Positions 21,204 to 64,000 of a stretch of 64,000 nucleotides of DNA are shown here, piece after piece. The stretch is taken from the NCBI GenBank assembly GCA_934771475.1, contig CAKVMD010000001.1:21232-85231 (forward strand), given 5' to 3'. Position numbers and translations under genes: made by a program. Numbering within the stretch: position 1 is the stretch's first letter; each line of letters begins with the position of its first letter. The stretch is from an uncultured Clostridia bacterium (lineage in GTDB: Bacteria > Bacillota > Clostridia > Christensenellales > UBA1242). The notes under the pieces are model-generated. The model had not been told where the DNA came from and ran no database searches. It saw only the letters and a program-made list of their open reading frames with translations.

Positions 21204-22745
21204 ATGGAAAATATCGTAGAATGCTTAAACAAAAAGTTTAATAATAAGTATAACTATTTAAAACTCTTGAATGTTTTGTATGACCGCAATGCTCGTCTTG
21301 CGACCATTACTTTCCTTTATCCTTGTACAATGGACGAAGTCCCTATCGAGGATAAGGAAGAGGTTGAAAAATTCATTCAAGAGTTTTTGTCGTTACACGC
21401 AGATATTAAGGTTAAGTTTAGAAAAAGTTTCCTTGATGACAAACTTGTGGTAAACGAAGTAGAAGAATTTTTTAAAGAGAACAAAAAAGGATTGTTGCCA
21501 TATTTGAACAAAGACAATATTATGGCGTCCCACAATGAACTTAATGTTGAAGTAAAACTCACTTTAAATCAAGATGTTTTATCGCTTCTTGATGAAACCG
21601 AATTTAAAACTGAATTAAAAGAGTTCCTAGACAAGAGGTTTATTGCATCATTCCAAATTGAGATTGTAGAAAATGAGGAAAAGTTGCCTGATGAAATAGT
21701 AGCCGATGATATTATGCCTTCTTTGCCTAAAACGAGAAGATATAAGGTTGAAATTGAAAAAGAAATTATTGGCACTGGCATCAGTCCAAACCCAGAATAC
21801 ATAGAAGATATGAAAAAGCCGAAAGAGTCTGTGATACTTTCTGGCTTTATGACTAAACTCAATCAAAAGAAGTATATAGCGAAAAATGGTAAATTTAAGG
21901 GGAAAGAGAGAGTCTTGTACACATTTACTCTTCGAGATTCAAGCGGAGCAATCGAGTGCACTTATTTTTGCGGGAAAGCCCACGAAAAAGACATAGAGTC
22001 GCGTGAAGATATGTGCATGCTTATTTGTGTCGGGGATGTTAAAGAAGGATTTTCTGGCAAACTGGGTTATACCATCAGAAAACTTGCGCTTGCCCAGCCA
22101 GACCAAGATAAACAAGAGGAAGAAAAAACGGAAAGTAATCACAAGCATAAACAGGTGGTTTTTCCAAGTATTATGCAACGAAGCAATCAAGCACAACTTT
22201 TTGAAACCAAACCAAATTATAATGCTTTCATTATGAATAACGACATAGTGGTTTTTGATATTGAAACAACAGGGCTTGACCCAGAAAGCGACGAAATTAC
22301 CGAACTAGGTGCTGTTAAAATTGAACATGGTGAAGTTACCGAAAAATTTTCATCTTTTGTTAAACCAAATATTAGAATCCCCAAAGAGGTTGAAAATCTT
22401 ACTGGCATTTCTAATGAAATGGTTGCATTCGCCCCAAAAGTTGAAGATGTGATTGAAGATTTTTATAATTGGTCAAGAGGTTGTATTTTGAGTGGACACA
22501 ACATTGCGGGCTTCGATATGAAGTTTATTCGCAAGGCTGGTTCAAAAATTGGACTAAAATTTGATAACCAAATTATTGATACACTTATTGTTGCTCGCCA
22601 ATCCTCACTTCGTGTTCCAAACTATAAATTGGGCACTCTTGTTAAAGCGCTTGGACTGGTTTTGGTTGATGCGCATAGGGCATTTAATGACGCGTATGCA
22701 ACCGCTCAGGTGCTAATGGAATTAAATCGCGAGAAAAATAAATAA
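21204..22745 (+). CDS. PolC-like N-terminal domain + OB fold + DEDDh 3'-5' exonuclease, with no PHP or polymerase core
   Basis: The C-terminus (VVFDIETTGLDPESDEITELGAVK...GHNIAGFDMKF...HRAFNDAYAT) closely parallels the B. subtilis PolC exonuclease insert. The middle segment parallels the PolC OB domain. The gene sits where polC normally lies, between rseP and rimP. Confidence 0.7.
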   Translation: MENIVECLNKKFNNKYNYLKLLNVLYDRNARLATITFLYPCTMDEVPIEDKEEVEKFIQEFLSLHADIKVKFRKSFLDDKLVVNEVEEFFKENKKGLLPYLNKDNIMASHNELNVEVKLTLNQDVLSLLDETEFKTELKEFLDKRFIASFQIEIVENEEKLPDEIVADDIMPSLPKTRRYKVEIEKEIIGTGISPNPEYIEDMKKPKESVILSGFMTKLNQKKYIAKNGKFKGKERVLYTFTLRDSSGAIECTYFCGKAHEKDIESREDMCMLICVGDVKEGFSGKLGYTIRKLALAQPDQDKQEEEKTESNHKHKQVVFPSIMQRSNQAQLFETKPNYNAFIMNNDIVVFDIETTGLDPESDEITELGAVKIEHGEVTEKFSSFVKPNIRIPKEVENLTGISNEMVAFAPKVEDVIEDFYNWSRGCILSGHNIAGFDMKFIRKAGSKIGLKFDNQIIDTLIVARQSSLRVPNYKLGTLVKALGLVLVDAHRAFNDAYATAQVLMELNREKNK

Positions 22746-28091: not shown

Positions 28092-29049
28092 TTTTACAAA
28101 AGAAATAAAAAAAATGATAAAAACCGCAACATCCATTGCGGTTTTTACCCATATTACACCAGATTGTGATGCTTTGGGATCAAGTTTGACGCTAAAAGAG
28201 GGATTGACAGCGCTTGGCAAAAAAGTTACATTTTTCGCCAAAGATAAATTAACTAAAAATCAATCTCTCGTTTTTAATTCCCCAGATATTTCAAATAAAG
28301 ATTGTGATTTTTCTGCGTATGACCTATGCATAAGCGTAGATGCGTCTTCTTTTGAAAGACTTGGTGAATATGCAGAAGGATTTAAAAATCATCAAAACAC
28401 AATCGTTTTTGATCATCACAAGGGTAATTCGTTAACTGGCAGTATTATTTATGCATTGCCAGAATATAGTTCTTGCTGTGAAATAATATTGCAATTTTTA
28501 GATTTTTTAAAGGTTAAAATAACACCAAGAATGGCATCAATGCTTTATTCTGGTCTTTCTGCTGACACAAATTCGTTTATTAACACAAATGTTACTTGTG
28601 AGACCTTTGAAAATGCATTGCGTCTTGTAAGATTGGGTGCCGATGTTAACAAAGTCAACCAACTTCAATATAAAAACAGGACAAAAGTAGAGGTCGCTTG
28701 TAAAAGATATCTTTGGACAAACATAAAATTTAAAAAAGATATTGCATATTGTGCTGTTTCAAATGATGATTTGAAAAAATTGAAAGCCACAAAAAACGAT
28801 TGTGATAGTTTTTCTAATGACTTGTTGGGTATTGATGGTATCAATTATGGTTTTTCTCTTATCGAAGAAGAAAAGGGGAAAATAAATCTTTCAATGCGCT
28901 CAAAAGAAGGGTATGATGTTCAAAAAGTAGCATCTTTGCTTGGTGGAGGCGGTCATGTCTGTGCTGCTGGTGCAAAAATATGGAATAATTCATTGCCACA
29001 AGCAAAAAATAAAGTGCTTGAATTAATTGAAGAGACAAGGACAAAATAA
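28084..29049 (+). CDS. nrnA: DHH-family bifunctional oligoribonuclease/pAp phosphatase NrnA-like
   Basis: Motifs DCDALGS, DHHKGN and GGGGH. ATG 28084 overlaps the rbfA stop. Confidence 0.8.
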   Translation: MINFTKEIKKMIKTATSIAVFTHITPDCDALGSSLTLKEGLTALGKKVTFFAKDKLTKNQSLVFNSPDISNKDCDFSAYDLCISVDASSFERLGEYAEGFKNHQNTIVFDHHKGNSLTGSIIYALPEYSSCCEIILQFLDFLKVKITPRMASMLYSGLSADTNSFINTNVTCETFENALRLVRLGADVNKVNQLQYKNRTKVEVACKRYLWTNIKFKKDIAYCAVSNDDLKKLKATKNDCDSFSNDLLGIDGINYGFSLIEEEKGKINLSMRSKEGYDVQKVASLLGGGGHVCAAGAKIWNNSLPQAKNKVLELIEETRTK

Positions 29050-32724: not shown

Positions 32725-33219
32725 ATGAAATACTTTTTCATCTGTGTTTTAGGAGCGCTTGCGGTTTTTGTTGGGTATGTCTTTTCAAAGAAATATTCTA
32801 AACGGGCTAAGTTTTTCCAAACACTAGTTTCAATCTGCCATAAGTTTGAAATTGAAATTTGTTACTCCCGCGAAAGGCTTAAAAATTTATTTTTATCACT
32901 TGAAGACAAACAGAGAAATTCGCTTTTTGGCATTGATAGAAACTTTTGTGATTTTTTAGAAAATAAAGTTGCTCTTGAAAAAGAAACATTATTTAGTGGC
33001 ATCAATTTCTTAAAAGAAAACGAAAAAGATGTGATTTTTCTGTTTTTCAAATCATTAGGGAGAAGTGATGTTCAAAGCCAATCAAAAGAAATAAAGCAAT
33101 TTCAAAAAAGTTTTGAAGAATTTTCTTCTTTAGCCATTAACGATAATAAAAAATACGGAACTTTATCAATTAAAATGGGAATTGTGTGCGCGCTTCTTTT
33201 GGCAGTGCTGATTTTGTGA
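32725..33219 (+). CDS. spoIIIAB: stage III sporulation protein AB
   Basis: 164 aa with N- and C-terminal TM segments. Position in the operon. Confidence 0.8.
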   Translation: MKYFFICVLGALAVFVGYVFSKKYSKRAKFFQTLVSICHKFEIEICYSRERLKNLFLSLEDKQRNSLFGIDRNFCDFLENKVALEKETLFSGINFLKENEKDVIFLFFKSLGRSDVQSQSKEIKQFQKSFEEFSSLAINDNKKYGTLSIKMGIVCALLLAVLIL

Positions 33220-33226
33220 GGTATAG

Positions 33227-33421
33227 ATGAATATTGAAATTATTTTTAAAATTGCGGGGATAGGGCTTCTTACCGCAATTATGACACAAATTTTAAAACA
33301 GAGCGGTAAAGATGAAATCGCAACCATGGCAACGCTTGCTGGACTTATCATTGTAATCATCATGGTGATTAACCTTATGGGAGACCTTTTTACATCGATA
33401 AAAACAATATTTAATTTTTGA
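33227..33421 (+). CDS. spoIIIAC: stage III sporulation protein AC
   Basis: 64-aa two-TM protein (IIFKIAGIGLLTAI...) colinear with B. subtilis SpoIIIAC. Confidence 0.85.
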   Translation: MNIEIIFKIAGIGLLTAIMTQILKQSGKDEIATMATLAGLIIVIIMVINLMGDLFTSIKTIFNF

Positions 33422-33433
33422 AAGTAGAGGGTT

Positions 33434-33826
33434 ATGGAAATTATTTTTAAAATAGTCGCAGTTGGGCTTATAACTTGTCTGGCAACTATGATAATAAAAC
33501 CTGTGCGCAGTGATTTTGCAATTTTTATAGCGATAGCAGGTGGAATTATCATAATCTTTCTTGTTGTTGGGTATTTGACAGGAATTATAAGCACTTTCAA
33601 AACGATTATATCGTCAACTGGGCTTGATGCAAGTTTATATAAACTACTTTTAAAAATTCTGGGTGTAGCCTATTTACTTGAATTTACTGCGAGCATTTGC
33701 ACTGACACAGGGAATGGGTCTTTGGGAGATAAAATCCTGTTGGGAGGAAAGATTGTTTTAATGGTGATGGCATTGCCAATCATCGTTAGTATTCTTGATA
33801 TTGTAACGAGTCTCTTGCCAAAATGA
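33434..33826 (+). CDS. spoIIIAD: stage III sporulation protein AD
   Basis: 130 aa. ILKILGVAYLLEFTASICTDTGNGSLGDKI parallels B. subtilis SpoIIIAD. Confidence 0.85.
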   Translation: MEIIFKIVAVGLITCLATMIIKPVRSDFAIFIAIAGGIIIIFLVVGYLTGIISTFKTIISSTGLDASLYKLLLKILGVAYLLEFTASICTDTGNGSLGDKILLGGKIVLMVMALPIIVSILDIVTSLLPK

Positions 33827-51940: not shown

Positions 51941-52218
51941 AAGAGAAGTAAAAGACTCTTTTGAGATAAAGTGCCTCCAAAAATGAGACAACTAAAATAA
52001 AACTCATTCCTTCATCACAAGAATAAAAAACAAATTTATTAATTATAAAAAACACCTCCTATGGTTTTATCACCACAGAAGGTGTTTTTTGCTCGCAAGA
52101 AATTTACAAAGAGATGAATGCTTTCTTTCACATAATCTTTTATTATAACTTAATTTCTAAATCTCGCTTATTAAATATTTAAAAATCAAAAGCATTTAAA
52201 TATTGTTAAATGGCAATC

Positions 52219-54171
52219 TTACTTCCATTTTCTAATAAGCAATGACCTTTTTATGTAATATCTAGCAGGAATTACCGCCAAGATAAACACGATTGGCAAA
52301 ATTAAAGTTGTTGCATACAATGAAAATTCATTAACTGCCATTCCAAAAGCGAAGTTTAGGCCAATACATAAGCATATCAATGCACCTGTAATGGTCCAAA
52401 TTTGCCATTGTGGAAGAATTTGTTTAGGCAACCAACTCTTGTACTTAATCATATTGTAAGTTTGGATACTCACATCGACAATCAGTAGTGCAGGGAGTAC
52501 AATATACAAGAAATTAAAAGTGGCATTCAACATAGTTGATTTGAGAAGACTAATATAAGTAATCGTCGAACCAAGGCAGGCACAAATAAATGTAATCAAA
52601 CTTGCTATAAAATATAGTTTGTTGGTGTTATGGGAAGTTTTTGTGCTAGGTTTTTCATATACATCAAAAGAAATGTTTTGATTCTTATAAAAATCTTTTA
52701 AATCGTTATAATCATATAAGCAATCTTCGCGCTGCTCCTCGCTCAAAGAACCCTTTGTTTTAGCATATAATTTAGAAAGAATTTCTTGATGGGACGGATC
52801 AATAGAGGAGTCTCTCTTAGGTGCGGGAAGTTTTTCTTTTCCGTTGTCAGGTAAAATTTTTAATCTAGGAGGCTCAATCTTTCTAGGTTTTTCAATGCTT
52901 GATGCATCAACATGCGCCACAATAAATTTGCCATCATCAATCTTTGGCTCTTCCGTTTCTTTTAACTTGTTTTCGCCAGATTCTGTAATTGAAACATTGC
53001 TTGAATTATTTTTCTCGCTTTCAAGTTTGTCCTTGTAGTTTGTAAAACGCGCAAAAGAATCTTGACTTTGGTTATATGAAGTTCTGTTTTGCATTAAAGA
53101 ATTTTTAAACTCTTCCAAATTCGCCTTTCTCTTTTCGGTAGAAGAGGAGAGCAGTGGTGCTTCCGCAGCGATAGAAATTTGGTCTTCTGCAAAACTCTTT
53201 TTCTTTTTATAACTATTTATGTCTTTTGAAATATCATAAAGCCTTTGATTGTAGTCTGCAACTTCCTGTTTATTCAAAAATACAGCATCATCCTTATTCT
53301 TTTCAACGCTTTCTTCATCTTTATTTTCTTCAACTTTGTCAGCGTTCAACAAAGCGTTTTTTATCGAAAAAGCATAATTATTTTGTTTGTTGTCGCTTTG
53401 TTCTACATAAGAGGACTCATTTGCAACCGCAACGATTTTGTCATCTTGGTTTTCGTCTTCGCGCTCAGTGATAATAGTGTCTTCACTTGGATAAGCATAT
53501 TCTTCATTTTCAAGAGGGGATATCTCGTTATCATCCAAGGTTTCGCCATAAAGTTCGACACTTTCTTCTATTTCATTTTCTGCATTATTTTGCTCTTGTG
53601 CAACAAGGTCTTGATTACCAAATTCATTTTGATTTTCGATTTTCATTTCGTCAGCATCTTCTTGCTCTACATCTACACTTGAAAAATCAAAGAAATCACT
53701 ATTCTCATTTAAATCATCTCGCTCTTTATTTTCGCTTAAATTGCTTTCATTTAAAGCAAGACTCTCATCTAAATCATTATTGTTGAAATTGTCGATTGAG
53801 CTTTCGCTTGCATTGGTTACATTCATATCAATAGGGGCTTGCTCTTTTACATCTACATCTTCAAATTCACTAAAAACATCTATATTATTACGCGTAAAAT
53901 ATTGGTCTATTTCATTATAAAAAGCGCGCCCTGAATCAGTAATGGAGTAGTATTTGCGATTTGGCCCGAGTTCACTTGTTTTTAAATACGAAGAAACATA
54001 ACCTTGCTTTTCCATACGAGTAAGGTTAGAATAAACGCTAGGCTTTTTAAGATTCACTTTCCCGCCTGATTTTGAGTTGATTTCTGTGATAATGTCAAGA
54101 CCATAGAAATCTCTTTCAAGCAAGCAGTTGAGTATTAAGTAGGAAAGTTGACCCTTAGCATACAATTCCAT
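52219..54171 (-). CDS. PadR-family winged-helix domain fused to a ~400-aa acidic low-complexity linker and a C-terminal 4-TM membrane domain
   Basis: The N-terminus (YLILNCLLERDFYGLDIITEI...SVYSNLTRMEKQGYVSSY...RKYYSITDSGR) is PadR-like. Residues ~100-500 are D/E/N/S-rich. The last ~140 aa hold four hydrophobic helices. RBS AAAGGGAG. Confidence 0.7.
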   Translation of the reverse strand: MELYAKGQLSYLILNCLLERDFYGLDIITEINSKSGGKVNLKKPSVYSNLTRMEKQGYVSSYLKTSELGPNRKYYSITDSGRAFYNEIDQYFTRNNIDVFSEFEDVDVKEQAPIDMNVTNASESSIDNFNNNDLDESLALNESNLSENKERDDLNENSDFFDFSSVDVEQEDADEMKIENQNEFGNQDLVAQEQNNAENEIEESVELYGETLDDNEISPLENEEYAYPSEDTIITEREDENQDDKIVAVANESSYVEQSDNKQNNYAFSIKNALLNADKVEENKDEESVEKNKDDAVFLNKQEVADYNQRLYDISKDINSYKKKKSFAEDQISIAAEAPLLSSSTEKRKANLEEFKNSLMQNRTSYNQSQDSFARFTNYKDKLESEKNNSSNVSITESGENKLKETEEPKIDDGKFIVAHVDASSIEKPRKIEPPRLKILPDNGKEKLPAPKRDSSIDPSHQEILSKLYAKTKGSLSEEQREDCLYDYNDLKDFYKNQNISFDVYEKPSTKTSHNTNKLYFIASLITFICACLGSTITYISLLKSTMLNATFNFLYIVLPALLIVDVSIQTYNMIKYKSWLPKQILPQWQIWTITGALICLCIGLNFAFGMAVNEFSLYATTLILPIVFILAVIPARYYIKRSLLIRKWK

Positions 54172-54225: not shown

Positions 54226-54700
54226 ATTATTTTTTAATATTTTTGCGCTATTATGCATCGCATACTAGTGAAAACATAATATGGGAGAGGTTTGTGCTTT
54301 TTTATATAAGGAGTATAAATTTAATATAAAAATTATTTTTTCTCTCATTCATGGGTAGTTGAGTTATAAATAGAGGGCTTTGAGAAATATTCATCCGCTT
54401 GTAGGCTTTCAAATAGAAAATTGCAAAAAGTATTAAATTGAGGTATAGGAAATATGCGCAATTATACACAAATCTTGTACTTAATCATATCAAGAAGAAA
54501 ATACAACATAACAAACCACACAAAACGTCCAATTTTTAATGTGGGGGATTGAATGGAGATGAACAAAAAGTTTCTATCTTTCTTTTTTTGAAACATAAAT
54601 AAAAGAGGGGACTTGCAAAAAGCCTCATTTTTATTAAAAATTGATAGAATTTACCCATTTATATCTATGCGTAAAACACAAGTTTTACGCAATTATAGTC

Positions 54701-54731
54701 GCATACTAGCAATGTTTTGCCGACTATTATG
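54701..54731 (+). repeat. site C of a ~31-bp dif/att-like repeat family
   Basis: GCATACTAGCAATGTTTTGCCGACTATTATG matches site A at 21/31 positions, including the first 10. Confidence 0.5.
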
Positions 54732-55007
54732 TTATTTTATTATAACCATTTTATTTGACGCTCATATTTTAATTTATTGGTCTTTTATCTACATACTAGT
54801 TCAATCATATTTTATTTTTGATATTTTATCTGGTTTAATTCACTTTAATAATTTTAAATTGCTTAAAATCTTAAATATTAAAGATATAAATCATACTAAA
54901 TAATTAAATCGCCGAAAACCAAAATTTCCGTTTAAACATAAGTGTACCCACCATGTTTTGCGCCAAATTTCATAATCTTACAATATATAAATTTATGCTT
55001 TGCAAAA

Positions 55008-55964
55008 TTACTGATTATTTGATATAAATTCCATCATTCTAGTAAACCCGTATGTTTCTTCTCCACAAACGCTATCCGTAAAAATCGTTTTTTCCGGATT
55101 ATTTATAGAAGGCGTATTTTTTATGGTTTTTATTGATAAATAGTTAACGACTTTAACAAAAGCTTTATAAATATCTTCCCCTTCAAATAATTCGTCTGGA
55201 ACGCTACACAAAACCGATTCCATATAAACTTGATTTGGCAATCTATTGTTTGCATTGTAAAATAAAACATTAAATATTTTCAAAATTTTAATAAAGTTTT
55301 CGCCAGCATTTTTTATTTTTGTATTTAATGCTTCACACCTAGCATTTAAATCTATGTCAATAAAGCCTTTTCTTTTCCCAGCATAATATCTAAATAAACT
55401 CTCGTTACTATTCACTAGATATATTTTTATTTTGGTATTTGCGCCAAAATCTTCTTTGCCAAGAATTAAAATTTCATTTCCATTTAAATAAATCAAAGAA
55501 GTCGCTGACAGTTGGTTAGACACAGCCTTTTGAAAATCAACACCAAGGTCATAGATGGAATATTTGGACATATCCTGTGGTTTTGAATTGTCAACTTCTA
55601 CTTTGTCATCTTTCTTTTTCTTCTTTTTTCTTCTTTTTCGGCGATTTTGCCATGCCAATTTAAACCTTTGCCAAAGCTCTCTCCAAAAATTGGTCTTTTT
55701 TGCAGTGTTTAGTTCTAATTGTGCATTTTCTATACCCAAAAAATATACAAATTGAGAATTATCACAAAAAGCACCGCTTAACAATTCGTTTACCGGTTGA
55801 AGGACAACATTGTTTTTTGTAACATAAGAGACCTTTTCAGCCAGTTCTTCAACGCTGGCTGAAACTACACTTCTTACTAAATTTTGCGTCCTTTCAAGAT
55901 AAATCTCATTGTTTTGCGATGCTATGCTATTTATAAGATTTTTGGAAATTTGAACTTTTGCCAT
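55008..55964 (-). CDS. hypothetical protein co-transcribed with serS; possible degenerate Pol-beta-superfamily nucleotidyltransferase fold with an internal poly-Lys tract
   Basis: Starts 11 nt after the serS stop with RBS AAAGGAT. The C-terminal FIKILKIFN...QVYMESVLCSVPDELF resembles NTase helical-domain motifs. SGAF-x12-GIE sits where hG[GS]-x9-13-DhD is expected. Contains RRKRRKKKKKKDDK. Confidence 0.55.
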   Translation of the reverse strand: MAKVQISKNLINSIASQNNEIYLERTQNLVRSVVSASVEELAEKVSYVTKNNVVLQPVNELLSGAFCDNSQFVYFLGIENAQLELNTAKKTNFWRELWQRFKLAWQNRRKRRKKKKKKDDKVEVDNSKPQDMSKYSIYDLGVDFQKAVSNQLSATSLIYLNGNEILILGKEDFGANTKIKIYLVNSNESLFRYYAGKRKGFIDIDLNARCEALNTKIKNAGENFIKILKIFNVLFYNANNRLPNQVYMESVLCSVPDELFEGEDIYKAFVKVVNYLSIKTIKNTPSINNPEKTIFTDSVCGEETYGFTRMMEFISNNQ

Positions 55965-55975
55965 TTAAATCCTTT

Positions 55976-57262
55976 TTATTTTTTTGGTAAAATTTTATCT
56001 TTTCCACCCATATAAGGTCTTAATGCTTCTGGTATGCTGATTGAGCCATCCTCATTATAATTGTTTTCAAGGAAAGCAATAATGGCTCTTGGTGAAGCCA
56101 AAACTGTATTATTAAGAGTATGAAGCAGATATGTTCCCTTTTCTCCCTTTGCTCTAATTCCAAGTCTTCTGGCTTGTGCATCACCCAATGTTGAACATGA
56201 ACCAACTTCAAAATATTTTTGTTGTCTAGGACTCCAAGCCTCAACATCACATGATTTAACTTTAAGATCGGCGAGATCCCCAGAGCAACATTCTAGCGTT
56301 CTTACAGGAATATTAAGGTTTCTAAATATTTCTACCGTAAATTTCCACATTTTTTCATACCAAGACATACTATCTTCTGGTTTACATATAACAATCATTT
56401 CTTGTTTTTCAAATTGGTGAACTCTATAAAGTCCTCGCTCTTCAAGTCCATGCGCGCCACCTTCTTTTCTGAAACAAGGAGAATAAGATGTCATTGTTAT
56501 TGGCAAATCACTTTCTTTAATAATTTGGTCTTTAAATCTTCCAATCATTGAGTGTTCGCTTGTGCCGACCAAAAAGAGGTCTTCGCCTTCAATCTTGTAC
56601 ATCATGGCTTCCATTTCAGCAAAACTCATCACGCCATTAACAACATCACTTCTAATCATGAATGGTGGTATACAATAAGTAAAGCCTTTATCAATCATGT
56701 AGTCTCTTCCATAAGCAATCATTGCTTCATGAAGTCTTGCTGCATCACCCAAAAGGTAATAGAAACCATTTCCGCTTGTTCTTCCAGCGCTTTCTTTATC
56801 GAGACCGTTTATAGACGCCAAAATATCTGCATGATAAGGAATTTCATAATTTGGGACTGTCGACTCACCGAAACGCTCATTTTCTACATTTTCGCTGTCG
56901 TCTTTCCCAACTGGAACGCTGTCATCAATAATGTTTGGTATAGACATCATCAACGATTTTAATCTCGCAGAATAAGTTTCTTCTTCTTTTTCTATCTCTA
57001 TAATTCTTTCGTTATTTTTTACAACTTGTGCCTTAATTTCGCCAGCCTCGTCAATTTTCTTCTCTTTCATGAGTTTTCCGATTTGGCTGCTAAGTGTATT
57101 TCGGCTTGCACGCAAAGTGTCGCCCTCTTGTTTAAGTGCTCTAATTTTGCCATCAAGATCAAGTACTTCATCTACATAGGCAAGTTTTTGATCTTGAAAT
57201 TTCTTTTTGATATTTTCTTTTACAAGTTCAGGGTTTGTTCTAATTAAATTAATATCTATCAT
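55976..57262 (-). CDS. serS: serine--tRNA ligase
   Basis: 428 aa. N-terminal coiled-coil arm (MIDINLIRTNPELVKENIKKK) and a class II core. Confidence 0.95.
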   Translation of the reverse strand: MIDINLIRTNPELVKENIKKKFQDQKLAYVDEVLDLDGKIRALKQEGDTLRASRNTLSSQIGKLMKEKKIDEAGEIKAQVVKNNERIIEIEKEEETYSARLKSLMMSIPNIIDDSVPVGKDDSENVENERFGESTVPNYEIPYHADILASINGLDKESAGRTSGNGFYYLLGDAARLHEAMIAYGRDYMIDKGFTYCIPPFMIRSDVVNGVMSFAEMEAMMYKIEGEDLFLVGTSEHSMIGRFKDQIIKESDLPITMTSYSPCFRKEGGAHGLEERGLYRVHQFEKQEMIVICKPEDSMSWYEKMWKFTVEIFRNLNIPVRTLECCSGDLADLKVKSCDVEAWSPRQQKYFEVGSCSTLGDAQARRLGIRAKGEKGTYLLHTLNNTVLASPRAIIAFLENNYNEDGSISIPEALRPYMGGKDKILPKK

Positions 57263-57289
57263 ATGTTCACCTCTTATAAGTATAGATAA

Positions 57290-57319
57290 ATTATAAATCT
57301 ATTATTGACAACAAGTCAA
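57290..57319 (-). promoter_or_regulatory. sigma-A-type promoter for serS (short leader, no T-box)
   Basis: On the minus strand: TTGACT-18 nt-TATAAT. The -35 lies within a TTGAC-N5-GTCAA dyad. Confidence 0.5.
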
Positions 57320-57463
57320 ATAATTTAACAAATTTTTACAGTCTTTACCATATTTAATGGGAATTTAAACGGTTTTAGTGGCTAGTTTTTGAGTTTTGAA
57401 TTAGGTCGAGTCCAATTTAAGTAAACTCAATAATAATTTTACGCATAGATGTTTAAAATCATT

Positions 57464-57491
57464 TTGAATTTTATTTTATTTATGATACAAT
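57464..57491 (+). promoter_or_regulatory. extended -10 promoter for the recombinase gene, positioned for a leaderless transcript
   Basis: TTGAAT-16 nt-TACAAT with TG at the extended -10 position (TGATACAAT). Only CGTGGT (6 nt) separates it from ATG 57498. Confidence 0.5.
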
Positions 57492-57497
57492 CGTGGT

Positions 57498-58544
57498 ATG
57501 ACAAATATGAATTATTATCAAAAACGCGACCTTCAAAATAGATTAAAAATGGCAAAATATACCGAGCGACTCCCCGACTATTGCCTAGATTTTTTTATAG
57601 GCATCGAAAGCAAGACTTCATCACTTACTCGATACAATTATTCTTTGGATTTATTTGTGTTTTTTAACTATATTTCCCAGTTCGTTTTCAACAAAAAAGA
57701 GTCTGACATTACCCTAGAAGACCTAAACAAAATTAAAGCAAGAGATATAGAACAGTATCTTTCATATTTATCATATTATGAACTCAATGGAAAACTATAT
57801 AAAAACGATGAGAAAGGCAAAGCAAGGAAACTTGCCGCTCTTCGAAGTTTTTTTAAGTATCTTTACAATCATGATATGATTATAGGAAATGTTGCCAGCA
57901 AAATAGAAACCCCAAAACTCCACGATAAAGAAATTGTGCGACTTGAAAAAGATGAAGTAACTCGCCTGCTCGACACAATAGAAAATCCATATACATTTAC
58001 CAAGAGACAACAAGAATATAACAAAAATACTTTTGAGCGGGATAATGCGATTGTAACCTTATTTCTTGGCACAGGCATAAGAATAAGCGAACTGGTCGGA
58101 CTTGACCTCAATTCATTTGATTTTTCTCAAAACGCTTTTATTGTAACACGAAAAGGCGGAAATCAAACTATGCTATATTTTTCAAATGAGGTTGCGCGCG
58201 CTCTTAAAACGTGGTTAGAAAAACGCGCTACTCTTGGGCTTGATAAAGATGAGCAAGCAATGTTTATAAGTCTTCAAAACAAACGAATTTCTGTTCGCGC
58301 AGTAGAAAATTTGGTTAAGAAATTTGCAAAAGTAGCAAGTCCGCTAAAAAAAATAAGTCCACACAAACTGCGTAGTACATTTGGTACTAACCTTTACAAA
58401 GAGACCAAAGATATTTACATAGTTGCTGATGTTCTTGGACATAAGGATGTTAATACTACAAAACGCCACTATGCGGCAATAAGTGAAGATATGAGAAGAA
58501 ATGTCGCAAACGTGATAAAACTCGGTAGAGATGAACAAAACTAA
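57498..58544 (+). CDS. site-specific tyrosine recombinase, XerS/XerD-like
   Basis: Catalytic set R (GTGIRISE), HKLR, LGH and RHY. VTRKGGNQT and PHKLRSTFGTNLY...LGH blocks parallel streptococcal XerS. No phage or IS genes are adjacent. Confidence 0.85.
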   Translation: MTNMNYYQKRDLQNRLKMAKYTERLPDYCLDFFIGIESKTSSLTRYNYSLDLFVFFNYISQFVFNKKESDITLEDLNKIKARDIEQYLSYLSYYELNGKLYKNDEKGKARKLAALRSFFKYLYNHDMIIGNVASKIETPKLHDKEIVRLEKDEVTRLLDTIENPYTFTKRQQEYNKNTFERDNAIVTLFLGTGIRISELVGLDLNSFDFSQNAFIVTRKGGNQTMLYFSNEVARALKTWLEKRATLGLDKDEQAMFISLQNKRISVRAVENLVKKFAKVASPLKKISPHKLRSTFGTNLYKETKDIYIVADVLGHKDVNTTKRHYAAISEDMRRNVANVIKLGRDEQN

Positions 58545-58754
58545 GCCTTTTTAGGCTCGCGAAGAAATTTGTAAATGAAGTGATGTCTTCTCTTTATTCG
58601 CAAGAAAAACTCAAATAAGTGAAGATTTTCTTTTAAATCTTAACAGCAAACTTAAAATTCATATAAACAAATTATCAATATTTTAATTTTTGTGTATATA
58701 ATTGTTTTTACTGCACACTATAAAGGTGTGAAGGAGATATGCTTCACATTAGAA

Positions 58755-58795
58755 GAAGCCACACATCAATATGAGTGTGGCTTCTTTCTTTTTCC
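58755..58795 (+). terminator. rho-independent terminator overlapping an 11-codon mini-ORF
   Basis: Perfect 10-bp stem GAAGCCACAC...GTGTGGCTTC followed by TTTCTTTTT. Confidence 0.7.
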
Positions 58796-58854
58796 GCTTT
58801 TTTACTTTTTGGACAAAACGGTGTTAGAGTGTCATTATGTTTCCCCACATTAAA

Positions 58855-58888
58855 GGGCTAGTATGCAATGCATACTAGCCCTATTTTT
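58855..58888. terminator. perfect 12-bp palindrome hairpin (bidirectional terminator candidate, downstream of spoIVB)
   Basis: GGGCTAGTATGC-AAT-GCATACTAGCCC, then TATTTTT on the + strand and TTTAAT on the - strand. Confidence 0.65.
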
Positions 58889-58900
58889 CGGGCTTATAGT
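58870..58900 (+). repeat. site A of a ~31-bp dif/att-like repeat family
   Basis: GCATACTAGCCCTATTTTTCGGGCTTATAGT. The 11-bp arms CATACTAGCCC and GGGCTTATAGT have a perfect inner 5-bp dyad around the 8-bp centre TATTTTTC. Confidence 0.55.
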
Positions 58901-58974
58901 CCCTGATTTATTTGTAAATTGTCTTTTATGACTATTTATTGTGGGTGCTTTTTTAAATTACAGAAGTTTTATTT

Positions 58975-60183
58975 TTACATTTCCAACTGTGAAAGCATCC
59001 AGTCGGTATAAACCCCATAACCTTTGGTTGGATCATTTAGAAATACGTGTGTAACTGCCCCAACAATCTTTCCATTTTGCATAATAGGAGAACCACTCAT
59101 TCCTTGAACAATTCCACCCGTCAGATTTAAAAGTTTATTGTCAATAACTCTAAAAACTATGCTCTTCTCATCTATTGAATTCTGATAATTTGCTTTTATA
59201 ATTTCAATTTCGTACTCTTCTCTAATTCCACTTACACACGAAACTATCTTTGCTTTCCCCGGTTTTATACTCAATCTTCCGCCCAACTTTGCAGAGAGAT
59301 TATGGTCTATTAATCCCGAAGTATTTTCTAGTTTCCCATATATTCCCTGTTTTGTGTTCTTATAAATTTCTCCCCTTGCATTCTTTGGAACAAAAACACA
59401 TCGCAATTCGCCGGGGTCATTTCTTTGCCCTTTTTTTATTCCAACCATGTTGCATTCATAAACCTTTCCATCCTTAACCGGAATTACATTTTCGCTTGAC
59501 CCATGAGTAATTGCGTGTCCTAAGGCTCCAAATAATCCGTTTTGTTTAACAAAAGTTAGCGTACCAACGCCTGACATACCATCTTTGCCCCAAATTCCTA
59601 GACGATATTCGCCTTCCTTGTCTTTTAGAAGTGGCACAACTTGCTCTAATTTGTGGTTGTTTCTGACAATTTCAACTTTCACTTGACTATCAGATTGTTT
59701 TTTTAAAGCCGACTGAATGTCGTCTAAACTAGAAATATCTGTCTGACCAATTTTCGAAATTATATCTCCATTTTTAAAATAATTATTTTTCACCATTTCG
59801 CCTTTGCTTTCGTCAATCGTACAATTACTTACGACCACTGTTCCATCACAACTAACAGCCAAACCAACAACCTCACCCCCGACAAAGACCTCTTCTTCGG
59901 GCAGTATTTTGGCCTTTATTTTTTTCACGGGTATGAAACCAAATAGTTTTACAACAACAAAATTTTCATCACTGCCATTATTATCTATTGAAGTCTGTTT
60001 ATCGTTAATTGACAATTTCACAAACTTACCAAATTGCTGTTCGCTGTTGGCAGTTTGTATTTCATCATAATTGACATAAAATTCATTAGGAAGAGCCAAG
60101 CAATCTTTCAAAGATATCTTTATAAACTCAACGCCTGTACAAAGCAAAAGAAGTAACATAATAAGAACAAATCTCTTTTTCAT
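58975..60183 (-). CDS. spoIVB: SpoIVB peptidase (S55 family)
   Basis: Signal anchor, PDZ region (GDIISKIGQTDISSLDDI), catalytic blocks GTLTFV...GALGHAI and GMSGSPIMQNGKIVGAVTHVF. Confidence 0.9.
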   Translation of the reverse strand: MKKRFVLIMLLLLLCTGVEFIKISLKDCLALPNEFYVNYDEIQTANSEQQFGKFVKLSINDKQTSIDNNGSDENFVVVKLFGFIPVKKIKAKILPEEEVFVGGEVVGLAVSCDGTVVVSNCTIDESKGEMVKNNYFKNGDIISKIGQTDISSLDDIQSALKKQSDSQVKVEIVRNNHKLEQVVPLLKDKEGEYRLGIWGKDGMSGVGTLTFVKQNGLFGALGHAITHGSSENVIPVKDGKVYECNMVGIKKGQRNDPGELRCVFVPKNARGEIYKNTKQGIYGKLENTSGLIDHNLSAKLGGRLSIKPGKAKIVSCVSGIREEYEIEIIKANYQNSIDEKSIVFRVIDNKLLNLTGGIVQGMSGSPIMQNGKIVGAVTHVFLNDPTKGYGVYTDWMLSQLEM

Positions 60184-60193
60184 TTTTCCTCCG

Positions 60194-60222
60194 CAAAAAA
60201 AGACTAACCAATGTTAGTCTCT
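60194..60222 (-). terminator. rho-independent terminator after recN, 10 nt upstream of the spoIVB RBS
   Basis: On the minus strand: AGACTAAC-ATTG-GTTAGTCT followed by T7, then GCGGAGGAAAAATG. Confidence 0.7.
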
Positions 60223-60278
60223 TCATTTTTCGTATTTAAATACTATATATTTTTTTAGTATAAATTTAATTGGTTACT

Positions 60279-61946
60279 TTACTTCCCCGCCTTCAAGCGA
60301 AGTTCTTTTGCTTGGTTTAATGCAGTCTCGCTAACAGATTGCCCAACAACCATTTTAGCGATATTTAAAGGAATTTCGTCCCCCACCAATTTGACAACAC
60401 GCGTTTGAGTAGAATTTTCATCTTCAAACTTGCTAACAAAGAAAAAATCATCACCGTAGCAAGCGACTTGTGGCAAGTGTGTTATACATAAAACTTGCGC
60501 AAACTTTGTTAAATTGCTTAATTTTTTCCCTACAATATTGCCAGTTTCGCCAGAAATACCCGAATCTATTTCATCAAATACGAGTGTTTGCGCACTTCCT
60601 ATTTCAGCAAATATGTTTTTAACAGCAAGCATAAATCTGCTAAGTTCTCCGCCTGATGCAGTTTTAGAAAGAGATTTAACCTCTTGTCCTTTGTTTGCGG
60701 AGAACACAAATTCAACTTTATCTGTGCCATTTTGAGTAGGCTCTTCGAGTTTTTCAAAATTAACAGCAAATTGACTTGATTTCATTCCTAGTTCTTTAAG
60801 TTCACAAACAATTTTCTCCTCAATGTCTTTTGCGACCTTTTTACGAAGAAGAGAAAGCGTTTCACAAGATTGCATAAGTTCCAAGTGAGTTTTTTCGTAT
60901 TCTTTCTGATATTTAGAAAGTAAAAACTCGCTATCTTCTAGGTCATTTAACTTTTGTTTTATTTGAGAGAGGTATTCAAGAACTTTCTCAATACTTCCAC
61001 CATACTTTTTTGTTAAAGACTTAATCGTATCATTTCTTCTATCAAGTTTGTCAAACTCTTTCTCGTCATATTCGGTTGAAGCTTTAATGTCCAATAATGT
61101 TTCGTAAACATCTTCAATTTCATATTTGGCGCTTTCAAGTCGTTGTCTGCATTGAGCAATATTATCAAAATTTGTAATAACAGTTAAAGAATTGGCAGCA
61201 TTTTCAAGCGACGACAAACAACTTCCAACATTTCCGCTTAAATACTCCTCGCAAGCACTGACAGATTCATAAATCTTTTCACTTGAATTTAAAAATTTTA
61301 AACGGTTTGAAACCTCATCTTCTTCTCCAATTTTAAGATTTGCTTCTTCAATTTCATTTACCTGATATTCATAAAGAGATTTCGTGCGTTCTCTTTCAAA
61401 CTCATCTCCGCCCAAAGAAGCTATTTTTCCCTTTATATCATTGCATTGAGATAAAAGTGTTTTAACAATTTCTTTTTGTTCTTTTATTTGTGCGCCACCG
61501 AACCTATCAAGCATGGGAAGGTGCATTTTAGGGTTTAAAAGTTCTACGCTTTCATGTTGTGAATAACTATCAAGAAGGCACTTGCCTACCTCTTTCAAAA
61601 CCCCAGCAGTTGTAGGAAGCCCATTTACGCGGACAGAAGATTTTCCATCAGTTGTTAATGTCCTACTTAAAGCAACTTCATTTTCCTCAACCCCAAACTC
61701 TTGAAGTCTTGAAAGGCAATAATCACTCAGCCCTGTAAAAACAGCATCTACGCGCATTTGCTCTTCCCCACTTCTTATAAGGGTTTTGTCGGCTTTGGCG
61801 CCTAAAACAAAATTGAGTGCATCAAATATAATACTTTTACCGGCACCGGTTTCTCCTAAGAGAATATTCAATCCCTGTCCAAATTCTATATTTAAATCTT
61901 TTATAAGTGCAACATTTTTAATAGAAATAGATTCTAACATATTCAC
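60279..61946 (-). CDS. recN: DNA repair protein RecN
   Basis: Walker A GETGAGKS, long coiled coil and the C-terminal LVFDEIDSGISG. Confidence 0.95.
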   Translation of the reverse strand: MNMLESISIKNVALIKDLNIEFGQGLNILLGETGAGKSIIFDALNFVLGAKADKTLIRSGEEQMRVDAVFTGLSDYCLSRLQEFGVEENEVALSRTLTTDGKSSVRVNGLPTTAGVLKEVGKCLLDSYSQHESVELLNPKMHLPMLDRFGGAQIKEQKEIVKTLLSQCNDIKGKIASLGGDEFERERTKSLYEYQVNEIEEANLKIGEEDEVSNRLKFLNSSEKIYESVSACEEYLSGNVGSCLSSLENAANSLTVITNFDNIAQCRQRLESAKYEIEDVYETLLDIKASTEYDEKEFDKLDRRNDTIKSLTKKYGGSIEKVLEYLSQIKQKLNDLEDSEFLLSKYQKEYEKTHLELMQSCETLSLLRKKVAKDIEEKIVCELKELGMKSSQFAVNFEKLEEPTQNGTDKVEFVFSANKGQEVKSLSKTASGGELSRFMLAVKNIFAEIGSAQTLVFDEIDSGISGETGNIVGKKLSNLTKFAQVLCITHLPQVACYGDDFFFVSKFEDENSTQTRVVKLVGDEIPLNIAKMVVGQSVSETALNQAKELRLKAGK

Positions 61947-61949
61947 CTC

Positions 61950-62402
61950 CTACAAAAGCATATCGTTAAGTGTAACGACAGCCTCACTTGCAGCGGTTGT
62001 GCTTGGGAAAATAAGCATAACAGTGTCATCACCATTTACTACGCCCATAAGAGAAGATATGTTAAGTTTGTCAACGAAACTCGCAATTCCTCCGCCAAGT
62101 CCTTTCATGGTTTTTATAACAATCAGGTTCAGCGCGGGTTTAACGGAAATAACTGCTTCTTTAAAAATAGATATGTACTTATTTGAAACAACATTTTCCT
62201 CACCGCCCACGAAACAATATTTATACTTGCCAGATGATGAGAGAATTTTTGTTAAACCCAGTTCTTTAATATCTCTTGAAATTGTCGCTTGGGTTATATC
62301 AAAATCAGCATTACGAAGCTCTCTTGCAAGTTCGTCTTGCGTTTCGATTTCTTTGGTTGAAATAAGTTCTAGAATTTTAGACTGTCTTGCACTTCTTGCC
62401 AT
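61950..62402 (-). CDS. argR: arginine repressor
   Basis: RQSKILELISTKEIETQDELARELR winged helix and the C-terminal GDDTVMLI core. Confidence 0.9.
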   Translation of the reverse strand: MARSARQSKILELISTKEIETQDELARELRNADFDITQATISRDIKELGLTKILSSSGKYKYCFVGGEENVVSNKYISIFKEAVISVKPALNLIVIKTMKGLGGGIASFVDKLNISSLMGVVNGDDTVMLIFPSTTAASEAVVTLNDMLL

Positions 62403-62419
62403 CGTTTTCTCCTTAAACG

Positions 62420-62450
62420 CTACATACGCCTATTTTCGGGGCTTATAGCG
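62420..62450 (+). repeat. site B of a ~31-bp dif/att-like repeat family (within the argR 5' UTR)
   Basis: CTACATACGCCTATTTTCGGGGCTTATAGCG. The 20-mer at 62429-62448 differs from 58880-58899 at one position. Confidence 0.55.
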
Positions 62451-62495
62451 ATTATGCATATTTATAAATTTATACATATACACTCATTTTTGATT

Positions 62496-62524
62496 ATTAT
62501 ACAACATTATTTATAATTATGCAA
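62496..62524 (-). promoter_or_regulatory. sigma-A-type promoter for argR-recN
   Basis: On the minus strand: TTGCAT-17 nt-TATAAT with TG extension (TGTATAAT). Confidence 0.6.
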
Positions 62525-62798
62525 GCGATTTTTGTATATTTATTCACGCGTTTTTGATATATATTTCATCTTTTGTATTTTTATAAAAATCAAATTTATG
62601 ATTAAACACTTTTATGCATATTTCGCTTACCACTCACCCACCCTACGCACGGGTAAAATGTAATGCGACAACCAAAAGACAATAAATCAGCAATGGGCCT
62701 GTTTGCATTTCGCGCAAAAAAAGCATTAATCATTTCATTCATTTGCCCCTCTGCTCTCTTAATAGAAAGCCATCACCTCGTTTCTATTTTCATGAACA

Positions 62799-62854: not shown

Positions 62855-64000
62855 TTATTCTATGACAATAATTTCCTCACCAGCCAAGCACTCTTCCACA
62901 AGCTCATCAACATTAATTCTCCCCTCTTCTTTTAAGCAGGCTTTTAAAGTCGGCTTGATTATAGGATTTTTTGGCAAGAATACTGTACAGCAATCTTCAT
63001 AAGGTAATATGGATGTTTCATAAGTATTTATGTTTCGAGCCACTTCCATAATTTGCTCTTTATCCATTGCAATGCAAGGTCTAAAAATAGGAACCTCTTT
63101 AAGCACTCCACCAGTTACAGTCATGCTTTGCATTGTTTGGCTGGCAACCTGCCCTAGACTTTCACCAGTAACCACGCACCCAAGTTCATACTTTTGACAA
63201 ACCCTCTCTGCCACCCTCATCATAATTCTTCTCATTATAGTTATCATGTATTCTGGATTGCAATGCGTATGTATTTCTTCTTGAACTTTTGTGAATGATA
63301 CGCAATGCAACGAGAATTTTCCAACATAAGGCACCAGTTCTTTCGCTAAGGTTATAACCTTTTCTTTTGCAAGAGTCGAAGTGTAAGGATAACTGTGAAA
63401 ATGCAATGCATCAATTTTAAGTCCTCGCTTCCCGATCAAATACCCAGCAACAGGACTATCAATTCCTCCTGACAAAAGTAAAAGCCCCTTTCCAGCGGTT
63501 CCAAGAGGCAATCCTCCTTGGCACTTAATATTATCAGCAAAAATATACGCCTTTTTGTTTAGCCTTATGTCTACATGAACTTCTCGTTGTGGGTTATATA
63601 ATTCCACATTTGCGTCTGGACAATTTTCGAGCAGAATTCCTCCCAGCATTGAAGCGAACTCCATAGAAGAATAAGGAAAGGTTTTATCTGCTCGTTTAAC
63701 GAAAACTTTAAAAGACTGACCACCCACATTAATTTTGTTTACAGCATTTTCGATGGCGCTAGGTTCTGCCTCCACCTCTTCCGCGCACGAAAGACTGTGA
63801 AGTCCAAAAACTTTTGTTAATTTGTCAACTATAACCTCTTCCCTCTCAAAAGGATAACCACTAACTACATATCTACCAAAAGTTTTTTCAAATTTAAACT
63901 CCTCGCCCGAAAGTGCATACTTGATATTTCGTATCAGCGTACTTTCAAAAATGTTTCTATTGGCGCCTTTTAGGTACAACTCGCCAAATCGCAACAGTAT
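62855..64000 (-). CDS. thiI: tRNA 4-thiouridine synthase ThiI (N-terminus outside window)
   Basis: GELYLKGANR start region, THUMP-like N-domain and PP-loop SGGIDSPVAGY. The frame stays open to the window edge. Confidence 0.85.
   Translation of the reverse strand: MLLRFGELYLKGANRNIFESTLIRNIKYALSGEEFKFEKTFGRYVVSGYPFEREEVIVDKLTKVFGLHSLSCAEEVEAEPSAIENAVNKINVGGQSFKVFVKRADKTFPYSSMEFASMLGGILLENCPDANVELYNPQREVHVDIRLNKKAYIFADNIKCQGGLPLGTAGKGLLLLSGGIDSPVAGYLIGKRGLKIDALHFHSYPYTSTLAKEKVITLAKELVPYVGKFSLHCVSFTKVQEEIHTHCNPEYMITIMRRIMMRVAERVCQKYELGCVVTGESLGQVASQTMQSMTVTGGVLKEVPIFRPCIAMDKEQIMEVARNINTYETSILPYEDCCTVFLPKNPIIKPTLKACLKEEGRINVDELVEECLAGEEIIVIE

Follow-up and report, generated by a model that had tools for sequence, protein, structure and literature searches.

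We analyzed a stretch of 64,000 nucleotides (the window; positions 21,232 to 85,231 of contig CAKVMD010000001.1, assembly GCA_934771475.1) from an uncultured Clostridia bacterium of the order Christensenellales. Our analysis implies that the window probably covers the replication terminus region of a Christensenellales-type gut Clostridia genome and that it probably also harbors a chromosome-dimer-resolution module of the Xer/dif type, in which a tyrosine recombinase of 348 amino acids (57498-58544, + strand) would act on a 34-bp palindrome located at 54663-54696. An earlier note on this DNA had described a lone XerS/XerD-like recombinase surrounded by three related 31-mers, namely site A (58870-58900), site B (62420-62450) and site C (54701-54731), and had proposed these as its targets. 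The broad idea of a Xer-type recombinase with its own site at the terminus holds, but the likely site is none of the three.

The candidate dif-like site emerged from alignment A1, from the palindrome search and from the skew data. It reads ATCTATGCGTAAAA-CACAAG-TTTTACGCAATTAT and is composed of a left arm (54663-54676), an asymmetric 6-bp centre (54677-54682) and a right arm (54683-54696) whose outer 5 bp have diverged, which gives a 14-6-14 layout with an inner 11-6-11. The palindrome is intergenic, its GC content is 0.29 compared to 0.35 for the window, and it belongs to a conserved non-coding island (54657-54756) delineated by BLAST against 66 related loci of 21 kb from metagenome-assembled genomes (MAGs) of gut Clostridia; the closest of these relatives is L001, whose recombinase is 93% identical. 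Besides extra half-sites, there is one full copy of the palindrome in the window and one per locus. Alignment A1, which comprises 39 genomes, gives the form ATCTATGCGTAAAA-CACAAG-TTTTACGCATAGAT with a nearly invariant core, and the 14-6-14 palindrome is present in at least 41 of the 66 relatives, most of the remaining loci having too little upstream DNA to judge. The CA of the centre is invariant and its orientation is kept, the forms including CACAAG (17 loci), CACAAC (8) and GACAGG (5). In the relatives with a 53-56% identical recombinase both arms and the half-site at the recombinase promoter change in step: TGCGTAAAA...CATAGAT is replaced by TGCGCAAAA...CAAAGAT, and the arm takes the form ATCTTTGCG(C/T)AAAA...CAAAGAT.

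The position of the palindrome agrees with a role at the terminus. The GC skew amounts to +0.05 to +0.20 over 1-52 kb and to -0.09 to -0.21 over 52-64 kb, its cumulative maximum being at 51973, and the large open reading frames are nearly all on the + strand before 51.9 kb and thereafter all on the - strand, the recombinase excepted. Converging genes together with a plus-to-minus change of skew are the signature of a terminus, the origin showing the opposite. Therefore, the putative terminus is placed at about 52 kb, where gene orientation and skew converge (51941-52218). The recombinase lies 5.5 kb and the palindrome 2.7 kb from this switch and from the cumulative maximum, respectively; the earlier note had suggested a check of proximity to the skew minimum, and it is at the cumulative maximum that the terminus lies. 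In 33 of 36 loci the skew changes from positive on the left of the palindrome to negative on its right, and a local cumulative maximum is found within 4 kb of it in 35 of the 36, in 9 of them within about 50 nucleotides (nt). Locus L045 is instructive, as its segment 2416-7417, with the exporter gene, the gene of a PadR-like protein and the palindrome, has the reverse orientation compared to the window and the centre reads CTTGTG. The palindrome is still at the local skew maximum there (+49 nt), that is, the inversion moved the site and the switch together.

The recombinase itself is Xer-like without belonging clearly to any of the named Xer families. The NCBIfam profiles gave 182.2 bits for XerS (NF003462, cut-off 267), 169 for XerC (TIGR02224, cut-off 335), 162 for XerA and 154 for XerD (TIGR02225, cut-off 330), the XerA score being below its cut-off as well. 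Thus, of the description as a lone XerS/XerD-like recombinase, the Xer-like character stands, and so does the finding of a single tyrosine recombinase in the window, but none of the Xer profiles is matched at its cut-off. Pfam assigns a Phage_integrase domain and a SAM-like N domain, the nearest solved structures are XerD (6e-19) and XerA (1e-18), with XerH only at 2.6e-8, and the catalytic set is complete (R195, K219, H289, R292, H315 and Y325). No second tyrosine recombinase was seen in the window or in the flanks of the loci, except for a 28%-identical protein in L066. The gene is fixed amid serS, spoIVB, recN and argR in more than 50 species-level genomes that belong to a single taxonomic order, and the family is spread across Christensenellales (Candidatus Borkfalkia, CAG:552, CAG:727 and Christensenellaceae MAGs), where public annotation calls it just 'integrase' or 'tyrosine-type recombinase'.

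Half of the palindrome recurs at the promoter of the recombinase. This lone half-site, TTTTACGCATAGAT (57437-57450, + strand), is the reverse complement of the left arm and lies 14 nt upstream of the -35 element of a promoter TTGAAT-16-TACAAT with TG before the -10 (57464-57491, + strand), a layout which is similar in homologues. The 14-mer has only two exact copies in the window, one in the palindrome and the other at this promoter, and a half-site is located 30-120 nt upstream of the recombinase ATG, beside or inside the promoter, in about 43 of the 66 loci. It is possible that the recombinase regulates its own gene through this site. The recombinase ATG begins 6 nt past the TACAAT -10 box, therefore its mRNA is probably leaderless; many homologues (L084-L161) have TATAAT 6-8 nt before the ATG.

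The association of the palindrome with the recombinase extends to metagenomic data. A scan of metagenomes for the exact 18-nt core of the palindrome returned at least 120 contigs. Among the 120 listed, 38 encode a recombinase at least 40% identical to that of the window, and in 37 of these 38 the site is 5' of the gene start, at a median distance of 171 nt. A further 16 of the listed contigs carry a recombinase of inovirus type with the site 26-50 nt upstream, 7 carry a more distant recombinase, and 55 have none, the site being within 1.2 kb of the contig end in 35 of these 55. The PadR-like gene is present in 13 of the 38 listed contigs with the recombinase, in some of them divergent from it across the site. 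Microviruses have no integrase of their own. Where they are found as prophages at dif, they enter via the XerCD of the host (PMC3091885, PMC7062461). In contig L075 a complete-looking microvirus set (Phage_F capsid with 571 bits, scaffold, ORF5 and Rep) ends 21 nt from the site, and past the microvirus and the site follow serS and the recombinase; contig L176 has a junction like that of L075 with a different microvirus.

Elements of another kind, inovirus-like and about 8 kb long, with a Zot-like ATPase and Rep_trans, were also encountered in viral and metagenome contigs (L068, L076, L079 and among L101-L197). Their own tyrosine recombinase is 26-31% identical to that of the window and has a palindrome of this type 26-50 nt upstream. 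In several of them a second site of variant form, TGCGTAAAG-N6-CTTTACGCA, is located about 2.7 kb from the first, across the recombinase gene.

There are observations which weigh against the recombinase and the palindrome being a dimer-resolution module. No recombination product or junction was observed. The palindrome of the window is 2.8 kb from the recombinase gene and does not adjoin it, and two loci, L046 and L052, have the recombinase without a palindrome within 10 kb. Contigs of unrelated tailed phages contain the 18-nt core as well, thus the core alone is not diagnostic. In L075 the left junction falls off the contig and about 13 nt to the left of the palindrome resemble the flank of uninfected relatives, therefore the exact crossover point is undefined; mapping it by comparison of L075 with prophage-free relatives was abandoned, as their non-coding flanks are too diverged. 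The site is often found in a divergent promoter region between the recombinase and PadR-like genes, where the operator of a repressor would sit. Finally, the evidence on XerC/XerD and on a canonical dif is confined to the 64-kb window and the 21-kb loci.

The last of these points speaks for a module with another role, such as attachment of phages or mobile elements or an inversion switch, with the dimers being resolved by a conventional XerCD/dif elsewhere. The recombinase stays below every Xer equivalog cut-off, its annotation names only an integrase or a tyrosine-type recombinase, and the inovirus-like elements carry related recombinases, all of which would suit such a role. We nevertheless consider it unlikely. 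A mobile function does not sit well with a gene fixed among serS, spoIVB, recN and argR in so many species, the site is at the skew switch, no canonical dif was found within 10 kb of the switch in any locus, and microvirus prophages elsewhere are known to exploit dif and Xer (PMC3091885, PMC7062461). Searches with the dif sites of Bacillus subtilis and Escherichia coli in the window, and with that of B. subtilis in the 66 loci, gave matches (19-21 of 28) at the level of the shuffled-window background, and searches of the window with difSL and difH likewise gave background only. The best difSL-like 31-mer of the window, a match of 23/31 at 28215, is inside a coding gene and was set aside as chance.

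The location of the site between divergent recombinase and PadR-like genes, as in L084, L143 and L150, keeps alive another explanation, namely that the palindrome is only the operator of a transcription factor, for example of the PadR-like protein, which controls the recombinase and its neighbours and has nothing to do with recombination. The perfect type of the palindrome, the half-site at or inside the recombinase promoter, the extra half-sites beside the palindrome in a distant group of relatives and the similar palindromes in unrelated phages are all compatible with an operator. Other observations are difficult to reconcile with it and make it, in our judgment, rather improbable: in the inovirus-like elements the site directly precedes the gene of their own recombinase, and L076 yielded no PadR domain; microviruses without an integrase are integrated right beside the site in two contigs; site and skew switch are no more than about 50 nt apart in 9 loci and have moved together in L045; an asymmetric 6-bp centre with conserved CA and orientation is unusual for an operator spacer; and lone half-sites fit recombinases which bind as monomers.

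If the recombinase resolves chromosome dimers at the palindrome, the steps may be outlined by analogy with XerS/difSL and XerH/difH. One recombinase monomer would bind to each 11-14-bp arm, and the two sites of a chromosome dimer would synapse at the septum. Tyr325 would then cut where the asymmetric 6-bp centre meets the arms, and the dimer would be separated through formation and resolution of a Holliday junction, possibly under the control of FtsK. The order of strand exchange could be determined by the divergence of the outer bases in the right arm, and the lone half-site by the promoter would let the recombinase repress its own, probably leaderless, mRNA. Microvirus genomes sit integrated beside the site, and the inovirus-like elements, equipped with a related recombinase of their own, carry a site of like type.

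The immediate surroundings of the palindrome bear on a further reading. Its right flank (54697-54745, + strand) holds site C and consists of GCATACTAG (54701-54709), a variable spacer, CTATTATG (54724-54731) and a T-rich run. Site C starts 4 nt to the right of the palindrome, and in alignment A1 the flank comprises GCATAMTAGC, with which site C begins, a variable and partly self-complementary spacer and ACTATTWTGTTATTTTTTTATAAT, the first and the last of these being nearly invariant. Judged from this alignment, site C is part of the conserved DNA flanking the palindrome, and the flank has the appearance of an inverted repeat of terminator type or of an accessory element. On the other side, about half of the relatives (L002, L007, L008, L020, L022, L027-L030, L033, L037, L038, L040, L042, L050, L051 and L056) have a gene for a YgjP-like metallopeptidase of about 200 amino acids (+ strand), which lies between the PadR-like gene and the palindrome and ends just before the latter; it is present neither in the window nor in L001. 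The palindrome could be an RNA hairpin, either within the 3' untranslated region of the YgjP-like gene or within a small RNA whose end would be the terminator-like repeat next to it. Its folding is favourable (z = -5.0), two positions of the stem have changed in both arms, and a T-rich terminator-like element is found 3' of it. We hold this to be very improbable, since symmetric changes are equally expected of a protein-bound DNA palindrome, the isolated half-sites at the promoters cannot form a hairpin, the palindrome persists without the upstream gene and in phage genomes, and its 14-bp stem displays almost no covariation over deep divergence.

A few more features of this region should be mentioned. 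The YgjP-like gene of the relatives has a -10-to-ATG layout like that of the recombinase gene. In a distant group (L053, L054, L055, L057, L061, L062, L064 and L075) DnaA-box-like sequences lie next to the palindrome, TGTGGATAA to its left and GTGGATAAC...TTGTCCACA to its right, and extra half-sites, some of them in opposed pairs, are located 400-750 nt to either side of the palindrome. A weak second site at 55075-55098 of the window is inside a gene and was judged to be due to chance.

Regarding sites A, B and C, all three 31-mers do occur at the positions given above, and A and C are identical at 21 of 31 positions, as claimed. No other 31-mer on the + strand of the window matches A as well as site B (22/31, reached only with a 1-nt shift) and site C do; the next one scores 19/31. 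The 20-mer which A and B were said to share with one change contains two mismatches (18/20), and an all-against-all count revealed 70 direct 20-mer pairs with two or fewer mismatches in the window, two such loci being intergenic. Therefore, the A/B match is only weakly above chance and constitutes weak evidence alone. The sole other intergenic pair from this count, 33211-33300 and 33415-33500, has GAAATTATTTTTAAAAT in common and is similar over about 90 nt. The AGCCC/GGGCT dyad of site A with its 8-nt centre is real and gives an 11-8-11 layout, site A does lie 326 bp past the stop codon of the recombinase, and correct, too, are the genes named as flanked by A and B (argR, recN and spoIVB) and by C and A (a gene of no family, serS and the recombinase). 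Moreover, A and B agree at one variable base, reading TTATAG in the window and ATATAG in L001.

One may conclude from these similarities that A, B and C are the Xer targets after all, either as dif plus pseudo-sites, as footprints of a rearrangement, or as substrates for programmed excision of argR-recN-spoIVB or of the block from the gene of no family to the recombinase. We find this scarcely credible, and it is already largely refuted. In A, the left half forms one side of the stem of a 13-bp terminator hairpin, and the dyad does not survive in L001; B has the stem-loop character of an RNA, its wobbles being strand-specific; C is flank DNA; and none of the three has sequence in common with the palindrome, which accompanies the recombinase in 41 genomes and in 60-odd of the listed metagenome contigs. 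Additionally, 18/20 matches are common in the window, and BLAST shows the gene order across all three sites to be the same in six close relatives, thus they are not footprints of a recent rearrangement and none of them marks a breakpoint. The rearranged loci L045, L046 and L052 retain the adjacencies of the recombinase with spoIVB and of argR with thiI, which hold A and B. Excision of argR-recN-spoIVB or of serS is without support. The case illustrates that look-alike short sites can be terminators or leader hairpins while the real target is a few bases off.

Site A belongs to a perfect hairpin, AGGGCTAGTATGC-AAT-GCATACTAGCCCT followed by TATTTTT (58854-58889), which was the top match of the terminator scan. 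The earlier note had seen a perfect 12-bp palindrome fused to A; the hairpin is there and is perfect, but its stem has 13 bp (58854-58882), and the first 13 bases of site A are its 3' arm. The predicted folding energy is -27.4 kcal/mol on the + strand (z = -6.0) and -26.1 kcal/mol on the - strand (z = -5.3). With 7 GC pairs in the stem, a 3-nt loop and a U tract, and lying between convergent units, the hairpin looks like a two-way terminator between a small-RNA-like unit on the + strand and spoIVB on the - strand. It is 100% conserved in L001, with diverged flanks, and more distant relatives have no counterpart of site A. The right half of the site, GGGCTTATAGT (58890-58900), is not conserved; L001 reads GAAGGCATATAGCCC there, so that the AGCCC/GGGCT dyad is lost. 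Site A thus resembles rho-independent terminators in its GC-containing stem, its U tract and the convergent transcription, and it differs from an ordinary terminator in that its stem is made of a clade-specific 9-mer repeat, which is also found at the promoter of the PadR-like gene and beside the palindrome.

The small-RNA-like unit (58691-58805, + strand), located directly 3' of the recombinase gene, is composed of an extended -10 element TGTGTATATAAT, a conserved CTGCACAnnATAA block (CTGCACA...), the hairpin GTGAAG-GAGATATG-CTTCAC (58728-58747) with AGGAG..AUG in its loop, and an intrinsic terminator with a variable stem (58752-58787) and, after it, a U run. A single copy is present in about 50 of the 66 relatives, and in L004, L015 and L063 the unit is inverted together with its own promoter and terminator. 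It has no match in Rfam, and its short open reading frame is not conserved. The GTGAAG-N8-CTTCAC hairpin was itself considered as a dif candidate. It travels as a transcription unit, with its own promoter and terminator and inverted as a whole in these three loci, and it is absent from distant relatives which keep the recombinase; therefore, it was rejected.

Site B coincides with a stem-loop in the leader of argR, CGCTATAAGCCCCGAAAATAGGCGTATGTAGCG (62418-62450, - strand), which was delineated in alignments A2 and A3 and lies 3 nt upstream of the Shine-Dalgarno sequence; site B is 18-48 nt upstream of the argR ATG. In the aligned stem 81.6% of cells are paired, compared to 32-54% with the partners slid, five pairs change on both sides, and the U-G wobbles fit only the - strand, which is that of argR. 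With a covariance model of the stem, the - strand gives 49.8 bits, compared to 30 bits for the + strand. Going by this pattern of covariation, site B is a conserved stem-loop of RNA type in the argR 5' leader, and it resembles other 5'-leader stem-loops in being conserved and located just 5' of the Shine-Dalgarno sequence. The possibility that A is a copy of B was tried and rejected, the covariance model built from site B failing to find A. As A is the terminator at the 3' side and B the leader at the 5' side, they mark the two ends of the argR-recN-spoIVB block. In L043, L019, L024, L017, L027 and L045 the loop of the argR hairpin is reverse-complemented (CCTTTATTTTAAAGG versus CCTTTAAAATAAAGG), the pattern left by small hairpin-loop inversions.

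Upstream of the stem-loop lies the argR promoter region (62451-62620, - strand), with TTGCAT at 62519-62524, TATAAT at 62496-62501 and TGAATAAnnATACA repeats up- and downstream. The promoter TTGCAT-17-TATAAT is invariant among the relatives, and identity among 45 relatives amounts to 75-91% over the 220 nt upstream of argR, which is above that of the adjacent coding DNA. The TGAATAAnnATACA repeats resemble ARG boxes, and we infer that ArgR may autoregulate argR.

The likeness of A and C rests on the 10-mer GCATACTAGC, which has 6 near-copies in the window against 1.9 expected, and the corresponding 9-mer motif was counted 126 times in the window and 79 loci together (1.13 Mb), where about 19 would be expected. 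Its two forms, CTAKTATGC and GCATAMTAG, occur as an inverted pair with a 3-nt spacer (CTAGTATGC-N3-GCATACTAG) at the promoter of the PadR-like gene in most relatives and in the A hairpin (58858-58878), and the pair brackets the dif-like core in about 10 loci. In the window the copy upstream of the PadR-like promoter is the palindrome CTATTATGC-ATC-GCATACTAG (54248-54268), the 9-mer arms of which are shared with the A hairpin and with site C. By these counts, the A/C likeness reflects a separate, clade-wide inverted-repeat motif. The interpretation of GCATACTAG as a -10 box of sigma-G/F or as an ARG box was discarded, the spacing being unfit by eye.

The PadR-like protein (52219-54171, - strand, 650 amino acids) has a PadR N-domain according to its profile, and an acidic linker and a hydrophobic C-terminus can be recognized by eye in the translation. 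Its gene is near the recombinase in all relatives checked, and being such a constant neighbour it is an obvious candidate for the binder of the 9-mer repeats. It could even be that the module has three parts, namely the recombinase, the 34-bp palindrome and the PadR-like protein as an accessory or tether protein bound to the 9-mer repeats, complemented by self-repression of the leaderless mRNA through the half-site. The PadR-like protein would bind CTAKTATGC/GCATAMTAG beside the core and at its own promoter, and it would do the job which ArgR/PepA do at cer or FtsK does at dif. We propose this extension tentatively and give it a low probability; if true, Christensenellales would resolve dimers in a way of a kind not described before.

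The remaining genes around the module were assigned by NCBIfam and Pfam. On the + strand, queA, tgt, rny and the gene of a small exporter extend to 51940. On the - strand follow, beyond the PadR-like gene and the palindrome, a gene for a protein of 318 amino acids without a family match (55008-55964), serS (55976-57262), spoIVB (58975-60183), recN (60279-61946), argR (61950-62402) and thiI (62855-63994). The protein of 318 amino acids, encoded between the palindrome and serS, has a lysine-rich stretch and a homologue in L045 (36% identity), none being found in the other ten divergent loci checked. Rfam gave no family at gathering score in the 64 kb, nor at E <= 10 over two long intergenic regions, and, at gathering score, no T-box leader upstream of serS (57262-57498). 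A repeat of 43-48 nt, TTTTT..GCTCGC(G)AAGAAATTT[AC/GT]AAA..., is located at 52086-52128 and 58548-58595, its copies coming after terminator-like hairpins 3' of the last + strand gene and 3' of the recombinase. The GCTCGC(G)AAGAAATTT repeat at 52086 and 58548 was considered as a difSL-like site and dropped, as L001, the closest relative, lacks it.

Chromosome dimer resolution is nearly universal, and to our knowledge the departures from XerCD/dif are few: XerS, XerH, the archaeal XerA and the system of Legionellales. The literature search retrieved no description of this recombinase and palindrome, the full-text motif search giving only primers and short hairpin RNA sequences, and a Xer/dif-type module of gut Christensenellales is apparently undescribed so far. 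If our interpretation is true, it would fill an annotation gap for a whole order of abundant, rarely cultured gut bacteria and provide a sequence marker for the replication terminus in Christensenellales MAGs. It would also show where gut microviruses and inovirus-like elements attach and thereby link those phages to Christensenellales hosts.

Compared letter by letter, the palindrome matches none of the known dif, difSL and difH sites, yet it shares features with each of these systems. The difSL site of XerS in streptococci and lactococci (Le Bourgeois 2007; Nolivos 2010) is ATCTTTCCGAAAA ACTGTAA TTTTCTTGACA (PMC2965235), with a centre of 7 bp as written there and of 11 bp according to another study (PMC5357621). 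As in XerS/difSL, we find a Xer-type recombinase of about 350 amino acids near the terminus with a gene-linked site on its 5' side, the arms end with AAAA and begin with TTTT around the centre, and XerS is the best NCBIfam profile. Unlike in XerS/difSL, the centre has 6 bp, the arm contains GCGTAAAA in place of CCGAAAA, no difSL-like sequence is found near the gene, the site of the window is 2.8 kb away with a half-site at the promoter, and the PadR-like gene is a conserved neighbour.

The difH site of XerH in Helicobacter and Campylobacter, TTATGAAAA CTGCAC TTTTCAAAC, consists of inverted repeats around a variable hexanucleotide, is non-coding and low in GC, lies near where the cumulative GC skew peaks and is usually 16 bp to 2 kb from the recombinase gene (Carnoy and Roten 2009, PMC2731167). 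Its inner part, TGAAAA-N6-TTTTCA, is close to the GTAAAA-N6-TTTTAC observed here. However, XerH belongs to another phylum, the outer arms are unrelated, and XerH is a weak match to our recombinase (2.6e-8), below XerD and XerA. With XerCD/dif of E. coli and with CodV/RipX of B. subtilis the module shares the R-K-H-R-H-Y set and a geometry of about 11-6-11 at the terminus, and it differs from them in that one recombinase gene is seen, the arms are near-identical instead of being specific for XerC and XerD, and no 28-bp dif is matched.

Finally, the module may be compared to the cases in which mobile elements exploit the dimer-resolution machinery. Integrase-less microviruses directly by the site (L075 and L176) recall the integrative mobile elements exploiting Xer (IMEX) at dif (PMC3091885, PMC7062461). 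The Xer/dif system of Legionellales was found through a mobile element (PMC9765430), and here, similarly, the junctions of mobile elements point to an unconventional dimer-resolution site. In contrast to both, the hosts are Clostridia, the sequence of the site is new, and the inovirus-like elements bring a related recombinase of their own.

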